The translations under genes and the position numbers were made by a program. Source: Octopus vulgaris (taxonomy: Eukaryota). Taken from it: a stretch of 64,000 nucleotides of DNA. This document shows, piece by piece, positions 12,246-60,970 of the stretch. How positions within the stretch are numbered: position 1 is the first letter of the stretch; each line of letters starts with the position of its first letter. The notes under the pieces are model-generated. The model saw nothing but the letters and a program-made list of their open reading frames with translations. It did no database searches and was not told the origin of the DNA. Where the stretch lies: the NCBI GenBank assembly GCA_951406725.2, contig OX597822.1, positions 1,922,001-1,986,000 of the forward strand, given 5' to 3'.

Positions 12246-12334
12246 TATATATGTGTGTTTATGTGTCTGTGTGAAGAACGTACAGGTATATCTATTTATC
12301 GCTATGTATGTACATATATAGACATCCTTGCATA

Positions 12335-12585
12335 TACATAATTTACATTATTTATATTTGACGGATATTTGTCCTCATCTTGCTTGTTGTTAACTCAACG
12401 TTTCGGCTGATATACCCTCCACAGACTTCATCAGGTGTCTATGGGGAAATTTCAAACCTGGGTTCTCATTACTAAGGTATTTTTCGATGTTGTTGTTGTT
12501 GTTCAAGTTACTGCCTGGAATCGAACCCGGAATCTTGGGATTAGTAGCCTACGCTTGGAGTTTGTAGCCAGTACGCCATATGCCC
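12335..12585 (-). mobile_element. tRNA-derived SINE with a hammerhead/PLE-like tail (H2), head-complete copy
   Basis: Minus strand GGGCATATGGCGTACTGG (A box 12578-12568), GGTTCGATTCC (B box 12527-12517), (AAC)n linker, then CTGATGA...GAAACGTT (12434-12397). Confidence 0.7.
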
Positions 12586-12742
12586 AGGTTCGAAATTTCC
12601 CCCAAGACACCTGATGAAGGCTGGAGGTTATATCAGCCGAAACGTTGTGTTAACAACAAACAAGATGAGGACAAATATCGGCAATTGTAAATAATGTAAA
12701 TGATGTAGATAATTCCTCATCTCTTAAATATAGAACTGTATT
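12583..12742 (+). mobile_element. Inverted 5'-truncated duplicate of H2 with a longer 3' tail
   Basis: Inverted repeat of 12335-12462; whole unit flanked by atccttgcatat (12324-12335) / atctttgcatat (12743-12754). Confidence 0.75.
12606..12651 (+). ncRNA. Intact minimal type I hammerhead ribozyme (H2)
   Basis: Stem I gacac/gtgtt; CTGATGA-A; stem II GGCTG/CAGCC; GAAAC-GTT with palindromic AACGTT. Confidence 0.8.
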
Positions 12743-16648: not shown

Positions 16649-17760
16649 TTAAGTCGTCATGTATGAAATTTGTAGTAAGGTATATGGTAAACTTTGGCAG
16701 CTGCTCATTTTGCGCTTTATAAATCGTTTTTTGCTGTTTTTGTTTAGAGATGGATAAGTCGGAAATTCGTACAGTTTTGAAATGTGAGTTCTTTCTTGGA
16801 ATTACAGCATCACAGACAGCTCGGAATAAAAATTTCGATCTGGTAACTTTAACCTCACAAATGAGCAACGCGGTCGACAAGAAACAAAAATGGATAATGA
16901 CGAATTGAAAGCCACTATCGAGTCAGATCCATTTCAAAGTCCCCGTGAATTATTTTTGTTGCTTGGTGTTAGTAAGTAAACAATATTGACTCAATTAGCC
17001 CAAATCGGTTAAGTGAAAATTTGGATAAGTGGGTTCAACATGAACTCAATGAAAATCAGAAACAGCTACGTTTGGAAGCTACTTTTTTGTCACAAAATGA
17101 ATAATTTTTGAATCGAATTGTAACATGTGATGAGAAAAGGATCCAATACAACAACCGTAAACGTTCAGCACAATGGTTGGAGAAAACGAGCCACCAAAAC
17201 AGTCCAAAAAGCAAAATTCTTCAAAAGAAGCTGATATCGTGTATTTGGTGGTCTGGTGCAGGTTTGATCAATTATGATTTCTTTAAACCTGGCTCATCAA
17301 TCACGGCTGAAATATGCTGCAGTCAACTGGACCGAATGATGCAGCAACTTACAGAAAACAGCTTAGATTAGTCAACAGATCCACTCCTATAGTAAAACAA
17401 CGCCAGACCACACATGACAATAATGGCATTGGAGAAACTACAGGAATTGGAGGTGGAAGTTCTCCATTATTCACCATACTCACCTGATCTTGCCCCCACT
17501 GAGTACAACTTCTTCCAGAGTTTGGATAAGTTTTTGATAGCAAAAAGAATAATAATTCGGACGATTCTGTAGAACAGGTCTTCCAAGATTTGACTCTAGA
17601 TTGCCAGGCTTTTACAGTTTGGGGATGGACAATCTACCGCTTAAATGGCAAAAGTGTATTGACAACGTGGGTGCAAACTTTGATAAATAAAACTATTCCT
17701 TGTACTTATGAACATAGGAAACTTTTTTCCTTTCAACAAATTTCATACTTGATGACCTAA
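16649..17760 (+). mobile_element. Mariner element with degraded transposase (~16750-17690)
   Basis: TIRs ttaagtcgtcatgtatgaaatttg / caaatttcatacttgatgacctaa with TA TSDs; MDKSEIRTVLK, WVQHEL, IVTCDEKR and YSPDLAP motifs with stops and frameshifts. Confidence 0.92.
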
Positions 17761-19510: not shown

Positions 19511-21413
19511 TCAATCTCTCACAATGGACGGACGATAGTCATATCGGCTCCACGTAAGTTGGCCACTTTTACATGTTTAAAACTCCTTGTTGTCAAATAT
19601 TTTGTTTTAATCGTTGTGCAAGTTCATTCACTAAAAAACCTGAGAATTATTCACGTAGAATTCCGCCCCTGTATGGGCGAAATTACAAAAAAAACTTTCA
19701 AAACTTTCGTGGGTTTTTTAGCCATTTTTCATTTTGAAAATGGCAACTAGAAACCACGTGGCTAGCCCGCCAGTCATGCAGAACGGTAGCAAAACACTAT
19801 TGCTACCACTAACTACTAAACATCGCAGCGTGAACACCGCTGTCACCACCATCACCACCACCAACAACAACAAATCTAACGCCGCATTCACCATCGCCGC
19901 GACCAAAGACATTAACTTAGATTTCCCCTCACTCCCCACACCACTTGTTGATGATAAAGGGACAGAGAAAGGGATTTCAAAAATGAATACAAACGAAAAC
20001 ATGAATGCCAGCACCACCACCATCACCACCAACAACAACAACAACGAAATTGGCACAAAGCCGCCTACCAAAGACAACACCGCCAACACCAACACCACTA
20101 CTACGACGTCAAATGCTACATCCAAGCCTTCTACTGCTAATACCGCCAACACCAACACCACTACCATGACTTCAATTAACACTGCCACAATTAACACTTC
20201 TACTGCCAAATTCAAAACGAATTTTGCGGACGTAACAAAACAAAAAAGAACAATTGTAACATTCACCACACAAGAGATAAACCGCGCAAAGGCACTCTTC
20301 TCCAAAGAAGGAGACAAATTGCACCTTCACATTCCACAACACATCGTGGAAAACACCAAAAAAAAAACAATAATTTATAAAGTAATAAACAAAAAAACAA
20401 GAAGAACAGAAAATGCACCGCAGGAAAAAATCGAAAAATGCCTTCGTCCTGCATGGGACTCCAAGGAATATATCAGTTGGGGAAACAAATTTGGTACAGT
20501 CCAAGTACGTTTCCTCAACGAAAGTTTAGCAAAACGTTTTTCCACATTGGAGCTACATTCGGACGACTTGGTAATGATACCAGTCTATTTAAACAAAAGG
20601 GTCACGAAAGTCCAAATAAAAAACATACCATTTGATGTCGAAACACAATGGTTGGTCTCTGCCATCTGCTTTGAAATGTCAGAGACAATGTCAGAGACAA
20701 ACATCCTGGAAATCGCGGTTCTAGGAGAGAAAGACTATGTGGGCAAATCAATCGAATTCCTGCTTCAATTGGATGAAGCAGCAAGAGAGAAGATACCCAC
20801 CTCTATAGAACTGCCAGGAGGCTACAAACTCTATATAGTGGTTGAGGGCAGGCGACCACGCTGCTATTTGTGTGGAAGCGAAACACACTTGAAAAAGACG
20901 TGCCCAACCACTGCACACCAAGAGCAACAACAACAACCACTACCACAACCAAAGCACTCCGGAAAAAAGCTCTACTACCCACACCACCATCAACACAGAA
21001 GACGACAAGAGAAGCACACCAAGCTAATCCGTCATCAACCAAAAACCACTCAACACCTGGAAAAATACCAACACCACCAACAACAGCAAAACCCAAAGGA
21101 ACAGAAAAACAAAGAAAACACACACAAACTGATCCCCCATCCCTTATACCGCACTCAACACACACAAACACTCAACAACCAACAACAACGAAAACAACAA
21201 CACAACCACTTACACAGACATACATAGAAGCCCACAACATACCCCTACCCCCTTCTGATTCCTCAGAAATTTCGTCGGAAGACGAAACCAGTGAGGAATG
21301 GCAAATAGCTACAAAAAGAAGGAAAATAAAGAGCAGAAACACAACCAAACCAAATGCAAACACGAACAAAGCAGGGGGAAATATATCTCCCGAAGACATT
21401 TCAAAACCCAACG
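19511..21413 (+). mobile_element. 5' part of a Tx1/L1-type LINE (5' UTR plus ORF1), cut by the gap
   Basis: Starts right after (CTAT)n at 19451-19510; long ORF1-like frame with a zinc knuckle. Confidence 0.7.
19740..21413 (+). pseudogene. LINE ORF1 gag-like nucleic-acid-binding protein with one frameshift near 20910-20950
   Basis: Thr/Asn-rich N-terminus, RRM-like region (TKVQIKNIPFDV), CCHC knuckle CYLCGSETHLKKTC at 20862-20903; continues in the 20870 frame as a Pro/Thr-rich tail ending SSEDETSEEWQIATKRRK. Confidence 0.75.
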
Positions 21414-21513
21414 NNNNNNNNNNNNNNNNNNNNNNNNNNNNNNNNNNNNNNNNNNNNNNNNNNNNNNNNNNNNNNNNNNNNNNNNNNNNNNNNNNNNNNN
21501 NNNNNNNNNNNNN
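21414..21513. other. Assembly gap (100 N)
   Basis: Run of N between two different LINEs in opposite orientation. Confidence 1.
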
Positions 21514-23026
21514 TGCCGTGCAGAGGTTTCTCCTCCCACCTATCAGCCAATTGCTCGTGCGCTTTTTTCGTTGCCATTATTTTTACCTTCTTTGCAACAA
21601 TAGTTGCCGTACTTCCCTCGGGTTGTTCAGTTTGGGTATCCTGCACGAGATCCATAGCAAATCTTTTGCTTTCCTTTATGATAGAATGAAGCTTCTTTCG
21701 TCTCTCGTGATTTTCCACGTGCTTTAGCATCCAGTCATTCGATATTTTGAGATATTTGGCCAGTCCAATTGTGGTTGTTTTGTAAGCTAGTTCAAATTGG
21801 ATCAGGCCTCGACCTCCTTGGGCTCTGGGAATGTAAAGGCGATCTACGTCTGCCTTTGGGTGGTGCATCCTATTACAACTCAGTAGCTTGCGTATTTTTC
21901 TATCTATATTCTTTACTTCACTGATATTCCAGTTCAACACATTGTAGCTATAAGTAACAACTGGAACTGCTAAGGAATTTATAGCTAACACCTTGTTACG
22001 TGCATTTAGTTCAGATTTCAGGACTGCACGAACTCTCCTATAACATTCCTTCCTGGTTTTCTCTTTCATGCTTGCATGCTGAATACCAGAGCCTTCATTT
22101 ATCCCTAAATATTTGTATGTTTGTTCTTGCTCAAGCTCTCTTATGACTGTGTCAACATCTAACACGACTGAATTTGTGGTCTTCACTTTCCCTTTCTGGA
22201 AAGTGGCCTTGGCACACTTCTCAAGTCCAAACTCCATCCCGATGTCATCGCTGAATGCTTTCACGGTGCGCAATAGGCCTTCAAGTTCATTATTGTCTTT
22301 ACCATAAAGTTTTAAGTCATCCATATAAAATAGATGGCTTATTTTTTTATTGGCAATTTTATACCCATACCCTGTTCTGTTTAATTCACTTGTAAGGGGT
22401 ATTAGGGCTATGCAGAATATTAAAGGTGAAAGTGAGTCACCTTGAAAAATTCCACAGTTGATGTTTATATTTTCTGGAGGCAAGTACTCCATTAGAGTGG
22501 TATAATTGGAGATTCGTATTCCACAACGACATATTGTGTTTCAGGAAGTTTGAAATCACAGGGGAAATTTTGAAGATGTCCAGCGATCTCAAGATCCATG
22601 GATGCGGTATACTGTCGAAGGCCTTTTTGTAGTCAATCCATGCGGTGCTGAGATTTCTGCGTTTGTTGTGACAGTTCTCAAGGATCATACGATTGATTAG
22701 CAGTTGATCTTTGCATCCGTAAGAGCCTCGGCGGCACCCTTTTTGTTCAATGGGGAAAATATCGTTCTTCTCCATGAATGCATATGTTTTCTCCGCCAGG
22801 ATAGATGTTAGGATTTTATACGTGGTGGATAGACAGGTTATAGGCCGATAGTTTTTTGGAAGGTTGGTTTCGTTATTCTTTGGGAGTAGGTAAGTAATGC
22901 CACTTGCTAACCATTCAGGTGTTTTCTTTGGGTCTCTCATAATTCCATTGAGCAGCTGAACTAGCTTACCGTGTGCGCATGGGAGCGATGCGAGCCAGAA
23001 ATTCGGCACCCTATCTTTACCGGGGG
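21514..23026 (-). mobile_element. R4/Dong-type non-LTR retrotransposon RT region, 5'-truncated, one frameshift near 22480
   Basis: NYRPITCL, EQKGC, WIDYKKAFDSIPH, GIFQGDSLSP, HLFYMDDLKLY, YKYLG, RLYIPRAQGGRGL; 5' end abuts (TAA)n at 23027-23052. Confidence 0.92.
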
Positions 23027-24815
23027 TATTATTATTATTATTATTATTATTAGAGAATTATTAAAGATTTCATCCCGAGAGTTGAAACACTAAGAAAGTA
23101 TAATTATCAAAATACATTAGAATATCTTCAGAAAGCCTATATGTAGTCGTAATGTTGGAAATTAAACGTTTCTTTCTTTAATTGGATTTGATTATATTGA
23201 AGATGGTGTTACACAAGAAAATATTAAAATTTTGCGTGAAAATGTCACTTCATTTAGAAAAATATCTGTACGTGTGTGTGTGAGAGAGAACGTATTAATA
23301 TGGGGCATGATATGAATGAGAGTTGAGGAAGAAATTTTATTTGTACCGATTATTATTTTTGTGTTCATGCTGTAGAGGTAAATCTCGTATGACAGGCTTT
23401 AGATAACTGTAGGTTTAAGGGATATTTGCAGAGGCAAAAGATATAATGTATTCACAGAATATTTAAAGAGAAAGAAAAAAACAATTGTAATAGATCTTCA
23501 ATATTATATAGCAGTTCTGTCTAAATCACTCAGGAATTCTCTCTTACGATCCCCAGTTAAATACCCGTGTATCTACGGTCTCAGAGCCAAGTAAATGAAA
23601 CTAAATGCACCTACTGCTTTTCAGAAATGCTGTTGTAAATTTTGTTGCTATCATTTGTCTTCTTGTAACTAATATTAACAAATGCTTGACAATATCTAGG
23701 GTCAGTTATGTTAAACAACCATATTTTTTCTTTCAATTAATTTTTAATGTCGATCTATAAAATATTCTTGTAGAAAGTTTGAAGTTTTATAACAACATTT
23801 GTGTATACTGGCTGGAGATATGCAAATTACTGTTATCATTTATTATCATCGATTTCACTGCAATCGCCAAACTGGGACCAAGAAGTGATTCCAAGGACTA
23901 GTGAGAATAAATTACAGAATTAATTATCTTGGTAACAAAAAAAACAACAACAAAAACCAAAAAAGAAATCTCAACATGTGTGCAATTATGATTCATTTAC
24001 TCTGCTGTAAATGTCCAGTGTCCTCTTATGTAGGGGCTGCTTAGACATCAGACATTCCATGTCGAAACGTTTCCAAAATGTTCTGAGAAGCATCATGTCA
24101 TGTAAAAGAACGTTAACCGAATGAATAGAATATGAAAATGCCTGATCATGGGTCACCATTTGTTGTATATTCCGTCTCCAATGTCGTAGTACCGCCACAA
24201 TATTGTGACGGACAGTTTAGATGCACAGTACCAGTGTTGTAAGAGTCATTCGTTCCGGCTCTTTACGTTCTGCATTCAGAGCCAACCGAGTCAAATTAGC
24301 CTTTCATTTTTGGAGGGTTGACAATATAAAGTATCAAACAATTTACTGGAACGATGGCATTAGTTAACACACTTCTATTTTGGCCTTACCTCCTAATCAT
24401 ACACCGCCATTTTCGTGACATAGAAAATTAATAGCACAGCTTGCAAGTTAAGTCAGCAATCAAATTAAATATCTTATCACAAAAGTATTAGCTGGATAAA
24501 ACAGTGTAAAGTACATTTCGAGGGTAGGTTTTATGAAAATTATTTTAAAACTCACCAAAGTATATCAAGATCTAATGGCTTGATTTAACAGGTAAAAAAA
24601 TTAACGGAAAATCATCATAAAATTATGCAATCTAGTGATACGAAACATTAAATTTTACATTATATTTTAAGAAAGCCTGAGCAACGATAATATATTCAAT
24701 GTGTAAAATAGAATATGAATTTCTTGAGTAAGTAGGGCTCAACGATCCGTTTCTGTGGGATTAATTTGCACCAAGGGCTGCAATATATTTAAATGTTTCC
24801 AGTATTATATATCCT

Positions 24816-26505: not shown

Positions 26506-26663
26506 TGTAAGCCATTTAAGAAACACACAAAAGCCGTTCGATTCACTTCAACATTTAAGTTTAATTTGTCAAAATATTTTCGTCGCTTTAAGACCGCGAC
26601 TTCTTCAATGACAAATATTTTGACAAATTAAACTCAAATATTGAAGTGAATCGAACGGCTTTT
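26506..26663 (-). mobile_element. 158-bp HHR-bearing inverted PLE-like insertion (H3)
   Basis: 12-bp TSD gatatttatgct (26494-26505 and 26664-26675); inverted arms ~26528-26579 / 26613-26664. Confidence 0.8.
26564..26616 (-). ncRNA. Minimal type I hammerhead motif (H3)
   Basis: Minus strand atttgtca-TTGAAGA-A-GTCGC-ggtcttaaa-GCGAC-GAAAATATTT-tgacaaat; 8-bp stem I, palindromic AATATT stem III, C3 replaced by T. Confidence 0.65.
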
Positions 26664-27179
26664 GATATTTATGCTGTTGACGTTAATCGGAAGTCTTGAC
26701 ACTTTCCTTCCATTAATATTTTAAGGTAAAGGATGAGAGCTGCATCCATCCAGTGTTACAGACCTTTTGTCTTGATACAAAGCCATTGCCGAGATCGATC
26801 TGCATGGCGTAAAATGTGTCAAAACAATTTGAGTTGCAGTAACAGGACAGTAAAAGAATTATATCCTGCAATCAACAGACACACTTGTCCAGTCCCAGAC
26901 CTAACCTAAATCATTGGTGCCCCCTTCATGACTTCATAGCAAAATCAAGTTACATTCCCGCTTCCATCACAAATCGTAAACAGATGCGGCTTCTCTTCTT
27001 TTATTTTTATAGTTGTTTTTTCTTTGTGTCACACTTTTTTCTAACTGTTTCTCCTTTAAATCACTTCCTCATACGTTGAGATCGACAGGAGTAACTGTCA
27101 TATATACGCATGTGTGTGTGTGTGTGTGCATACTTGTATGTATGTATTATGCATACGTGTGTGTATGTGTTTATTGGTG

Positions 27180-28290: not shown

Positions 28291-28545
28291 AGTTTAGTGC
28301 TGGGCCAAAACATTGAATGCCAGAAGAGAGATTCGAAATGAAGAGCCAAATGTGTCTCTGGTGCCCGAGTGGGGCGGGTACGAGACTTCGTAGCTACGAG
28401 GAATAGCAGTCATTTTATTAGTGATAGAAGGAGACGACATGCAGAGGCTGGAGAGCAGCCGTTAGTTACCTTTTTGTTCTCGATTTTATTTCAACATGCC
28501 AGTGACGGATAGAGTGGAGGCAAGCTAAAAGAACTTGAGCATTAA

Positions 28546-28782
28546 AACTAAACAATCGCATTTACTCGATGATTCAATTCAATTAAAATTTGAACGAAAG
28601 AAACTGGAACTGCACCTTATATTCGGTAAGTATTGTGATCAGTATTGGCATGTTTCGGTTTTATAAAACCTCCTCAGAACAGGATAGACTTACTACAAGT
28701 TATAAGTCTCTAGATGCCGGGTTTCGCACTCTATTGCTTGTACTCATTCGCAATAACTCGATAATTCAAATCAATTAAAATA
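28546..28782 (-). mobile_element. Retrozyme-like ~190-nt unit (H4) with partial tandem repeat
   Basis: aatcgcatttactcgatgattcaattcaattaaaat recurs ~192 bp later; carries an HHR; second copy at 29878-30090. Confidence 0.6.
28643..28681 (-). ncRNA. Minimal hammerhead motif, H4 copy 1
   Basis: Minus strand tgtt-CTGAGGA-GGTTTTATAAAACC-GAAAC-AT-GCC-aata; cleavage triplet mutated. Confidence 0.55.
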
Positions 28783-29877: not shown

Positions 29878-30090
29878 ACAAATTAAACAATCGCAATGAC
29901 TCGATAATTCAAATAAATTAAAATATAAACACGAGTAATTGGAAGCGAGCTTATATTTGGCAAGTACTGTAATAGCTATTGACGTGTTTCGGTATTATTA
30001 AACTTCTTCAGCACAGGATAATATTACTATGACTTACAAGAACCTAGATGTTGGGTTTCGCACTGCACTGCTTTCACCCATTCAATTTAT
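29878..30090 (-). mobile_element. H4 unit, copy 2
   Basis: Colinear with 28546-28750. Confidence 0.6.
29976..30016 (-). ncRNA. Minimal hammerhead motif, H4 copy 2
   Basis: Minus strand ctgtg-CTGAAGA-AGTTTAATAATACC-GAAAC-AC-GTC-aatag; intact core and GUC, weakened stems. Confidence 0.55.
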
Positions 30091-58435: not shown

Positions 58436-59071
58436 ATATATATATTTATATAAGCCTTTATTCACAAAAAAGTCATTTTTTTCGTAAGGATGTTTTCTTT
58501 TGTAGGAATATGTTATCGAAACGGGCTCCAGTTTTGCGCTATTATCCATTGATGATACTGGATATTATTCGCGCCCTTATGTACTAATGTCCTTGGTTAG
58601 TTTGTTTTACCATTTTAGTATGATACTTTTCACTTCCGAAAGTGCAGTTGTCTCCATAGAGACTTGATTCTTTTCGATATAGGAGAAAAACATTAATAGT
58701 TTAAAGGAAATACAGAATATAGACAGAATAATGATTCGTTAATCGTAGTGCAGTCAATTATTAAGTTCTTAAAAATAAAACAACATCCAACTCACAGTTA
58801 ATCAAAAAGCTTACCATTTGGTCGGAATAAACTCTTCATTCGAGAGAAGTGGAAAAACTATATACCCAGAAAAACTATATACCCAGCCAATATACCCTGA
58901 AGCGGCCATTGTTTTATAACATCATAGTGCACTTTAAAGTTGCAAATATGAACAATAACAATTGGCCGAAACGTAACATAGGAGAAAAAAAATGTAAGAG
59001 CTTATTAATTAACTGCACTGTGATTAAAAAATGATTATTCTATGCATATTCTCCGTTTTCTACAAACTATT

Positions 59072-59159
<88 letters not shown>

Positions 59160-59191
59160 ATGTATGTATGTATGTATGTTTGTATATACAC

Positions 59192-59352
59192 AGGTGTGGT
59201 TCTGTGATAAGAAGCTTGCTTCCCATCCACGTGGATCCGGGATGAGTCCAACTGCGGGGCACCTTGGACAATTTCCTTCTACTATAGCCTCGAGTCGACC
59301 AAAGCCTTGTGAATGGATTTGCTAAACGGAAGCTGAAAGAAGCTCATCGTAC
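59192..59352 (+). mobile_element. SINE family A, 5' half
   Basis: Diverged head through gaagctcatcgta; its internal (TA)n hosts the H7 palindrome. Confidence 0.75.
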
Positions 59353-59353
59353 A

Positions 59354-59412
<59 letters not shown>

Positions 59413-59697
59413 ATAATGAAGGGTGAAATTAATTAATTTGGAATAATGATCAATTACACCAAGTAGCCTTCGGCATGTAAAAGCCCCATTCGAGGAAAAT
59501 TTAAGTAATACTAAGCAATAAAGGGTTTAGCAATGAATTGCCTTACCACAGACCGAATTTAGAAATAGCAGTCAAAGAGTTATAGCTATTTCTTCTACTA
59601 AAAGGGAGATCTCAGTAAAAACACAGCAATTGGAAGGCAGACACAAACAGGTAAGAGAGAATGAATTGACGGCAATCTATCATACAATTTTAAGTTA

Positions 59698-59797
59698 TCT
59701 ACGGACGCACGTTTCGAAATCAAGTTTTTAGGAAAGCATAAGAATTAAATATTAAATAATTCTACCTTACCCAAACTTCTTTTCTCTTCAGCGTAGA
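59698..59797 (-). ncRNA. Type I hammerhead ribozyme (H7, mirror copy)
   Basis: Reverse complement of 59808-59907. Confidence 0.8.
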
Positions 59798-59807
59798 ATA
59801 CTAGTAT

Positions 59808-59907
59808 TCTACGCTGAAGAGAAAAGAAGTTTGGGTAAGGTAGAATTATTTAATATTTAATTCTTATGCTTTCCTAAAAACTTGATTTCGAAACGTGCGT
59901 CCGTAGA
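59808..59907 (+). ncRNA. Type I hammerhead ribozyme with extended stem II (H7)
   Basis: Stem I tctacg/cgtaga; CTGAAGA 59814-20; 69-nt stem II (gaaa/tttc, aagttt/aaactt, gaatta/taattc); GAAAC-gtgc-GTC 59890-59901. Confidence 0.82.
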
Positions 59908-60097
59908 TAACTTAAAATTGTATGATAGATTGCCGTCAATTCATTCTCTCTTACCTGTTTGTGTCTGCCTTCCAATTGCTGTGTTTTTACTGAGATCTCC
60001 TTTTTAGTAGAAGAAATAGCTATAACTCTTTGACTGCTATTTCTAAATTCGGTCTGTGGTAAGGCAATTCGTTGCTAAACCCTTTATTGCTTAGTAT

Positions 60098-60147
<50 letters not shown>

Positions 60148-60163
60148 CATATATAAATATATA

Positions 60164-60203
<40 letters not shown>

Positions 60204-60349
60204 CACACATATATATATATACATACATATACATATATATATGTATGTATGTGTATATATATATATACATACATATACATATATGTATGTATGTATGTAT
60301 ATATATACATACATATACATATATGTATGTATGTATGTATATATATATA

Positions 60350-60970
60350 TTATTGAACGCCCCGCATCAATTTCCAAGTAAGGTTATCTTCATCTTTTTC
60401 ATCCCACTCTCTTCTCTATACTGTTCCGTTCTTCCGTCCTTCTCTAATCCCCTTTTTATCCTCCTCCCTCTTTCACTGATTTATTTCTCTTTCTCCCCTC
60501 TTCGTTTTTCTCTTTCTTTTGCTAACACGTGACCATTGTCCATCTTTGTTTTTCTCCGTTCACCCGCTTTTCCTGCACAGACGTTTAAAAGAACGGACGC
60601 TTTTTTTTTCTCTATCTTTTCTGTCTATTCTCATTTGAAAAAAATGTTTCTCCCAGAGTTCACTATTTTTTGCTCGTTCTGGTCTAACGACCCTCCGGCT
60701 TTGCTTTCGTCCGGTTTCCTTGTATGTCTCCACTGTCATCTTTTTTGTTCCCAGCTTTGACCTTCAATAAATCCTAAATTTTATTTTAGAATTTATGGGA
60801 GCAGCTGTCTTTGAAGACTCATATTGTTGTTGAATACTCGAAATGGGGAGTAGATAGACAGCCGACAACTGATGAAGGGTCCTTTCTCTGTGTTTACTTG
60901 TTCTGCTTTCCATTTTCCCCCATTCTTTACGCATTTCATGTTATTTGCTCCGTTGGTGTCGTCATGTACC
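60350..60970 (+). mobile_element. Repeat family X copy
   Basis: Homologous to 670-1120; flanked by TA-rich microsatellites. Confidence 0.65.

Follow-up and report, generated by a model that had tools for sequence, protein, structure and literature searches.

The locus described here raises a question of origin: what kind of element leaves two complete hammerhead ribozymes back to back on opposite strands, joined without a spacer, and what machinery placed it there? We analyzed it within the window, i.e., the whole 64-kb stretch of DNA that surrounds it, and in public runs. On balance, we favor a real and fairly young insertion of a noncoding repeat of ∼420 nt carrying a canonical, dimer-type hammerhead, which would make it a retrozyme-like, nonautonomous satellite of Penelope-type elements (PLEs). 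The proposal that it is a non-LTR retrozyme showing every hallmark of Penelope insertion (inversion head to head, a tail on one side, and a (TA)n target) is put forward only tentatively.

The locus consists of an inverted repeat (59504 to 59802 and 59803 to 60101) with arms of 299 nt and a spacer of 0 nt. Exactly two mismatches separate the arms (59604G/60001T and 59534T/60071G), giving a divergence of 2/299 (95% range, 0.08 to 2.4%). In the left arm (59504 to 59802), the sense of the element lies on the minus strand; the T of this arm at 59534, a CpG decay, is rare, and the arm continues outward into a one-sided tail of 94 nt (59410 to 59503, minus strand), the 3′ continuation of the repeat unit, present on this long arm only. 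The right arm (59803 to 60101, plus strand) is the 3′-shorter copy. Both copies terminate in TATTACT, a heptamer found within the long arm only at arm positions 299 and 394, which are the two outer ends; the terminus of the tail counts position 59409. The long arm has a GC content of 33.6%, its longest ATG-started frame spans 23 codons, and those of the unit's frames that were scanned with Pfam gave no match. In the 64-kb window, the palindrome at the 59803 axis is the sole perfect palindrome with arms of at least 25 nt centered outside (TA)n, and no copies of the unit were found besides the two arms. These observations bear out much of the sequence-only reading of this DNA, which had described a spacerless palindrome of 299-bp arms with two mismatches, an extra tail of ∼95 bp on one arm, and two back-to-back, outward-reading canonical type I hammerheads, the last recovered on both strands by the descriptor search described below.

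Both flanks of the palindrome are (TA)n. On the left, a SINE-like head (59184 to 59352, plus strand; 13 other window matches by blastn) precedes the target microsatellite (59353 to 59409); on the right lies a (TA)n/(TATG)n stretch (60102 to 60350). A target-site duplication is not readable in such microsatellite flanks, and no empty site was seen. The host DNA is of an animal type and dense in microsatellites, and its SINEs presumably resemble those of octopus. The unit had been placed within the (TA)n of a SINE, which holds for the left side, where it follows the (TA)n of the head. The right flank is not shown to be a continuation of that SINE: a second SINE part lies within 200 nt after six of eight other SINE heads (at 1092 nt after one more, and after one not at all) and is absent within 1500 nt downstream of the palindrome.

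Each arm starts 5 nt ahead of an outward-reading type I hammerhead, and the two motifs lie on opposite strands, 10 nt apart across the zero-length spacer. In the right copy (59808 to 59907, plus strand), a stem I of 6 bp (59808 to 59813 with 59902 to 59907) is followed by a core composed of CUGAAGA (59814 to 59820), GAAA (59890 to 59893), and a GUC cut site. Its 69-nt stem II (59821 to 59889), closed by 4 bp, folds at −15.7 kcal/mol, with 6 of 500 shuffles as good. Helix III and its loop read ACGUGCGU, and cleavage is predicted after C59901. The left copy (59698 to 59797, minus strand; core C3 at 59791) mirrors this organization. Both motifs contain CUGANGA, GAAA, an NUH site, and closed stems I and II, as is characteristic of type I, and neither has an extra nucleotide after position 9 (one is present in an unrelated motif at 12611). 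The 100-nt motif folds with a z score of −2.19 (4 of 200 shuffles as good), and the fold constrained to the hammerhead reaches −19.4 kcal/mol, compared to −22.1 kcal/mol for the free fold.

Searched with our own descriptor, the 64 kb yielded these two motifs only. Among Markov controls, 1 of 20 gave one loose match, and 0 of 20 gave a match with a stem I of at least 6 and a stem II of at least 4. A broader descriptor retrieved three matches in the window, compared to none in 30 controls. The Rfam hammerhead model RF00163 aligned to both arms over its full length (1 to 45 of 45; 21.2 bits; E value, 0.021), which is under its gathering score of 34, probably owing to the long stem II insertion. 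At the gathering level, Rfam gave no match across the window. Matches to microRNA and small RNA models at the E-value level were rejected, as they reflect the palindrome fitting hairpin models and all lie below gathering.

The design of helix III is predicted to be of the dimer type, as for metazoan type I hammerheads (PMC4209133; PMC6765202). As a monomer hairpin, helix III is unstable (+2.4 kcal/mol), while an intermolecular duplex over 8 nt reaches −8.8 kcal/mol. Both arms carry a minority C at 59708; with the majority letter of the repeat family at this position (54 to 94%, depending on the run), helix III becomes the perfect palindrome ACGUACGU (−9.8 kcal/mol), and the form present in the window is still fully self-paired at −8.8 kcal/mol. 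Full self-pairing is expected by chance in 4.6% of random A-N6-U 8-mers. No variant fell within CUGAAGA or GAAA among the 40 of 67 family variants listed, and the ribozyme appears from these sequences to be under constraint across the family. Since the two ribozymes of the locus lie on opposite strands, they are unable to partner each other within one transcript. The predicted pair probability of stem I is 0.07 to 0.27 in the full right arm, 0.24 to 0.96 when only arm positions 1 to 110 are folded, and 0.00 in a read-through transcript of the whole unit, a fold that supports the earlier suggestion that read-through RNA masks the ribozyme. With only 5 to 6 nt upstream of the ribozyme and a 299-bp read-through duplex that would block both ribozymes, this copy is most likely inert. 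The accompanying ideas of siRNA production, ADAR editing, and cruciform extrusion are generic and apply to any long palindrome.

Several other elements in the window deserve mention. An older head-to-head inverted repeat (12332 to 12710; 116/131 identical [89%]; 120-nt spacer) is unrelated in sequence to the palindrome and contains a PLE-type minimal hammerhead at 12611 (plus strand) with a decayed mirror copy at 12434 (minus strand). Just left of the SINE, a decayed inverted repeat (58692 to 59074; 63/80 identical, 223 nt apart) is possibly a third, older insertion of similar style. It includes a broken hammerhead-like motif at 58897 (plus strand), whose stem II is long and whose core is altered, and a perfect 17-nt tandem duplication (58852 to 58886) lies beside this decayed motif. 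Two repeat copies (28545 to 28749 and 29880 to 30083; 76% alike) have short inverted ends and one degenerate, minimal-hammerhead-like motif each (28677 and 30011, minus strand). Pyrimidine-rich repeat copies at 60640 to 60915 and 797 to 1072 (74% alike) end beside (TA)n, and the former contains CTGATGA without a recognizable second half. A 137-nt element (26528 to 26664) is self-complementary, matching its reverse complement at 86% around a short center that stays unpaired, and is MITE-like or another small palindromic insertion. Protein-coding remnants comprise a mariner-type transposase fragment (17105 to 17368; Pfam Transposase_1; E value, 6.6e−18) and a frameshifted reverse transcriptase (RT) (21404 to 23057, minus strand; Pfam RVT_1; E value of about 2e−13 in two frames). 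The latter was not adopted as an autonomous PLE partner, as its motifs read as LINE-like. ARAGORN found no tRNA in the window, and a scan with bacterial promoter and terminator models, which are unsuited to this host, found nothing.

The unit belongs to a repeat family that is both abundant and variable. Of 24 public runs listed, 20 contain the long arm at least in part; they represent 11 studies and 7 organism codes. In 15 of them, at least half of the arm's words occur, and the best share, 0.76, comes from what may be the source sample. Contigs from four runs (X1, X2, X3, and X12) were aligned to 59410 to 59830 at 80% likeness, yielding 3915, 1660, 1497, and 27 contigs, all short and, in the three large runs, mostly 90 to 99% alike. 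Depths were summed over contigs and do not equal copy numbers. No run listed as containing the unit was designated RNA; X12 is RNA by guess only and was not counted as evidence of expression. Family contigs cover the tail in all four runs. In exact-pattern searches, no match was found in the first metagenome contig search or in viral contigs, and one was found in the second metagenome search. We regard this single match as chance: its locus has 51.5% GC, CUGANGA is missing from the 150 nt upstream, and the similarity extends no further.

Comparison with the family clarifies the history of the two arms. At 59534, the family letter is C, which makes up at least 99% of depth in each of the four runs and is also the letter of the right arm; the left arm has T at this CpG. 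The other mismatch, 59604, is absent from the 40 of 67 variants listed, where absence is weak evidence, and the T at 60001 in the right arm is probably derived. If the family majority is ancestral, both mismatches (59534 and 60001) are C-to-T changes on the plus strand; with two sites, this may be chance. Both arms have G at 59551, where other letters account for >99% of depth in X1, X2, and X12 and for 77% in X3. Because the arms share letters that are rare in the family, they derive from one common source. In the tail, a family variant at 59423 to 59460 changes 59448, 59451, and 59456 together (∼10 to 16% of depth in X2 and X3 and the majority in X12); a loose end in X12 suggests that it tightens the tail hairpin.

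The family also reveals what normally lies beyond the axis (59795 to 59810, centered at 59802/59803). Native family sequence matches the window no further than 59803, and 30 contigs (18, 9, and 3 from the three large runs) continue past this point into nonmirror sequence; thus, the mirror join is not the default of the family. The native sequence opens with a hairpin, which is TAATCAT-AA-ATGATTA in X1 and X2 but CAATTAT-GA-ATAATTG in X3; the two forms, read by eye, differ by two compensatory pairs. A single X12 contig joins 59803 back to 59410 (depth, 60.6; short side, 35; the letters between are not known). It represents a diverged family member and has the greatest depth of any contig of that run there. 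Taking 394 nt from this joint and ∼25 loose-end letters from other runs, the unit would measure ∼420 nt; no tandem array was seen. Alternatively, the join could represent a partial tandem of truncated PLE ends.

That possibility leads to the reading that competes best with a retrozyme-like satellite, namely, that an autonomous, endonuclease-bearing PLE inserted here as a 5′-truncated copy reduced to its 3′ end, i.e., pseudo-LTR and tail, along with the inverted copy that usually accompanies it. Autonomous PLEs have arms joined head to head, a tail on one side only, AT-rich targets, and a short 5′ palindrome (PMC3846280; PMC8557442), and PLE hammerheads occur mostly as truncated single motifs, with some pairs on opposite strands 100 to 700 bp apart (PMC4209133). 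The hammerhead here is, however, canonical and lacks the extra nucleotide after position 9. Moreover, there is no ORF start in 393 nt, whereas the pseudo-LTR plus tail of Pen2a and PAc, as published, includes the ORF start, and one contig joins tail to head. The same three features (a canonical rather than minimal hammerhead, the lack of an ORF, and the head-to-tail contig) make the unit look more like a short noncoding retrozyme than like the pseudo-LTR of an autonomous PLE. The pseudo-LTR assignment made in the sequence-only reading is accordingly the less fitting one, and we consider an autonomous PLE end a doubtful, if serious, candidate.

An improbable alternative is that a single copy was inserted first and was later made palindromic by the host, through break-induced fold-back or replication slippage, with the unequal arms due to a 95-nt deletion between TATTACT repeats. 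The rare letters common to both arms agree with this sequence of events, as do outer ends that coincide with the only two TATTACT sites, which a microhomology deletion would leave, and the missing second SINE part on the right, which hints at local rearrangement. Yet the axis sits directly at the hammerhead's 5′ edge, which is where the boundary of an insertion would be expected, and a hammerhead family of unrelated sequence elsewhere in the window is also arranged head to head. In addition, one X1 contig contains another opposite-strand join in the same family (59447/59706).

More improbable still is an artifact of assembly or library preparation, either a fold-back chimera or a misjoin of two loci via self-complementary (TA)n. 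The family is high in copy number, (TA)n lies on both sides, no contig spans the stretch, and no second SINE part follows on the right, all of which such an error would accommodate. Depth beyond the axis (59815 to 59830) is found in X1 only (265; possibly the source sample) and is absent in X2, X3, and X12. Graph-built contigs tend to end near the center of a palindrome; therefore, missing depth is weak evidence for an artifact, and the X1 depth past the axis argues against one. So do the unequal arms with different flanks and the two transitions between the arms, particularly as the left arm alone departs from the family letter at 59534, by CpG decay, while the right arm retains it. A decayed inverted repeat of the same design in the window (89% arms and a 120-nt spacer) likewise cannot be a fresh artifact.

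We give almost no credence to use of the element by the host, as a bidirectional ribozyme switch or as a source of siRNA or edited double-stranded RNA under selection: the near-perfect 299-bp duplex in read-through RNA (predicted, −538 kcal/mol) and the very high level of hyper-editing in octopus, along with the heavy editing of Penelope in a lizard (PMC5625713), would suit such a role, but no host gene domain was detected among the 105 of 359 candidate ORFs scanned (short exons would escape), no sign of locus conservation was seen, hardly any upstream sequence belongs to the copy itself, and the T4 at 59688 to 59691 and T5 at 59725 to 59729 would presumably keep Pol III read-through of the SINE from reaching the axis.

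For the retrozyme-like insertion that we favor, no autonomous PLE was found; the architecture of the locus points to mobilization by a PLE, and formation may have proceeded as follows. Family RNA transcribed from head-to-tail copies elsewhere would pair via helix III, self-cleave, and perhaps circularize. A PLE RT/GIY-YIG protein acting in trans would nick the (TA)n target, and copying would begin at two internal sites 95 nt apart, each ending in TATTACT, which would give rise to the one-sided tail. The two copies could then be joined by either of two routes. In the first, both target strands would be nicked and extended and the two cDNAs end-joined over a 2-nt TA overlap. In the second, the cDNA would self-prime just upstream, at the native hairpin of 20 nt, whose central 18 nt would be lost later; removal of these 18 nt between two TA steps yields exactly the observed center. 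Direct zero-loop fold-back at the axis, as originally envisaged, was rejected: native sequence matches only to 59803, where 2 nt (TA) are self-complementary, and the 3′ end forms no hairpin (−0.2 kcal/mol), which makes such a fold-back unlikely. The shared TATTACT ends could represent an RT start signal that occurs twice, or else a scar left when an originally symmetric palindrome lost 95 nt by deletion. A block at 60005 to 60045 (plus strand), mirroring ∼59558 to 59599, is predicted to fold into a 9-bp hairpin. Loose contig ends accumulate at 59558 and 59599 in the runs (among the 24 of 206 ends listed, so that absence of other sites is weak evidence), and the block, which is kept in diverged relatives, is a candidate protein-recognition element.

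A PLE-type insertion, as first proposed for this locus, is therefore supported by an architecture like that described for PLEs (PMC3846280; PMC8557442), while its description as very recent was overstated. The insertion is young, with arms that differ at 2/299 positions, but it holds four family-rare letters and its arms have already diverged.

Much of this architecture has precedents. For endonuclease-bearing PLEs (Arkhipova et al. 2013, PMC3846280; Craig et al. 2021, PMC8557442; Frangieh et al. 2024, PMC11167929), head-to-head inverted copies, palindromic junctions, and a one-sided tail constitute the standard arrangement (PMC3846280; PMC8557442), and the unit shares the inverted copy, the palindromic junction, a tail on one side, and a location in (TA)n, the published targets being AT-rich or (TA)n. 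Short palindromes at the 5′ end are described for the pseudo-LTRs of Adineta (PMC3846280), and the repeat of the unit's family likewise begins with one. For PAc from anole, both target strands were nicked and extended in vitro, and two internal RT starts define the tail (PMC11167929). In contrast to these elements, the unit has no RT plus GIY-YIG ORF or ORF start, its tail is 94 to 95 nt rather than the 30 to 40 nt given for PLEs, its hammerhead is canonical and not minimal, its axis omits the native 5′ hairpin, and both of its ends finish in the same heptamer. Minimal hammerheads of metazoan PLEs also possess an extra nucleotide after position 9 (PMC4209133), which the motifs described here do not.

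Pairs of hammerheads on opposite strands, 100 to 700 bp apart, were reported in 2014 and ascribed to truncated PLEs (Cervera and de la Pena 2014, PMC4209133). The locus resembles them in having two hammerheads within 100 to 700 bp and a short, palindromic helix III that needs a dimer. The pairs described there are minimal, whereas both hammerheads here are canonical and lie 10 nt apart with zero spacer. As an arrangement, then, the double-hammerhead palindrome is known and is ordinary Penelope-type debris.

The unit's closest parallels in content are non-LTR retrozymes (Cervera and de la Pena 2020, PMC7229834; Li et al. 2026, bioRxiv 10.64898/2026.07.22.740005), which are alike in their canonical type I hammerhead, 2-bp helix III, palindromic tetraloop, noncoding sequence, GC content under 45%, and high copy number. 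Their units measure 150 to 450 bp (350 to 390 bp for mussel repeats), a range that includes the length inferred here. As described in these sources, they form head-to-tail arrays or solo monomers, while the present locus is inverted and not tandem, and they differ from the unit in stem II, which at 69 nt is also far longer than the usual short helix II. No cephalopod hammerhead repeat family was found in the literature, where supplementary data and subscription papers could contain one, and no retrozyme with an inverted head-to-head insertion and tail was found described, a point on which supplements may also bear. The family is abundant, young, and apparently undescribed.

These comparisons bear on how animal retrozymes move. 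The enzyme that mobilizes non-LTR retrozymes of animals is still a proposal drawn from co-occurrence and sequence kinship (PMC7229834; bioRxiv 10.64898/2026.07.22.740005); their PLE origin has been argued from co-occurrence and phylogeny, with the mechanism of mobilization presented as future work (bioRxiv 10.64898/2026.07.22.740005). If the unit is indeed a retrozyme with PLE hallmarks, the locus would constitute direct genomic evidence of PLE proteins mobilizing animal retrozymes. Its two ends would then be two RT start sites set by one repeated heptamer, and an RNA dimer linked by helix III would give both templates to a dimeric RT-endonuclease priming from both target strands. A family with PLE-specific junctions in its insertions would permit a direct test with genome data, by mapping end points and axes over many copies. 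The same mapping would separate fold-back from both-strand priming as the source of inverted copies, a choice left open, in their published accounts, for Adineta PLEs (PMC3846280) and PAc (PMC11167929).
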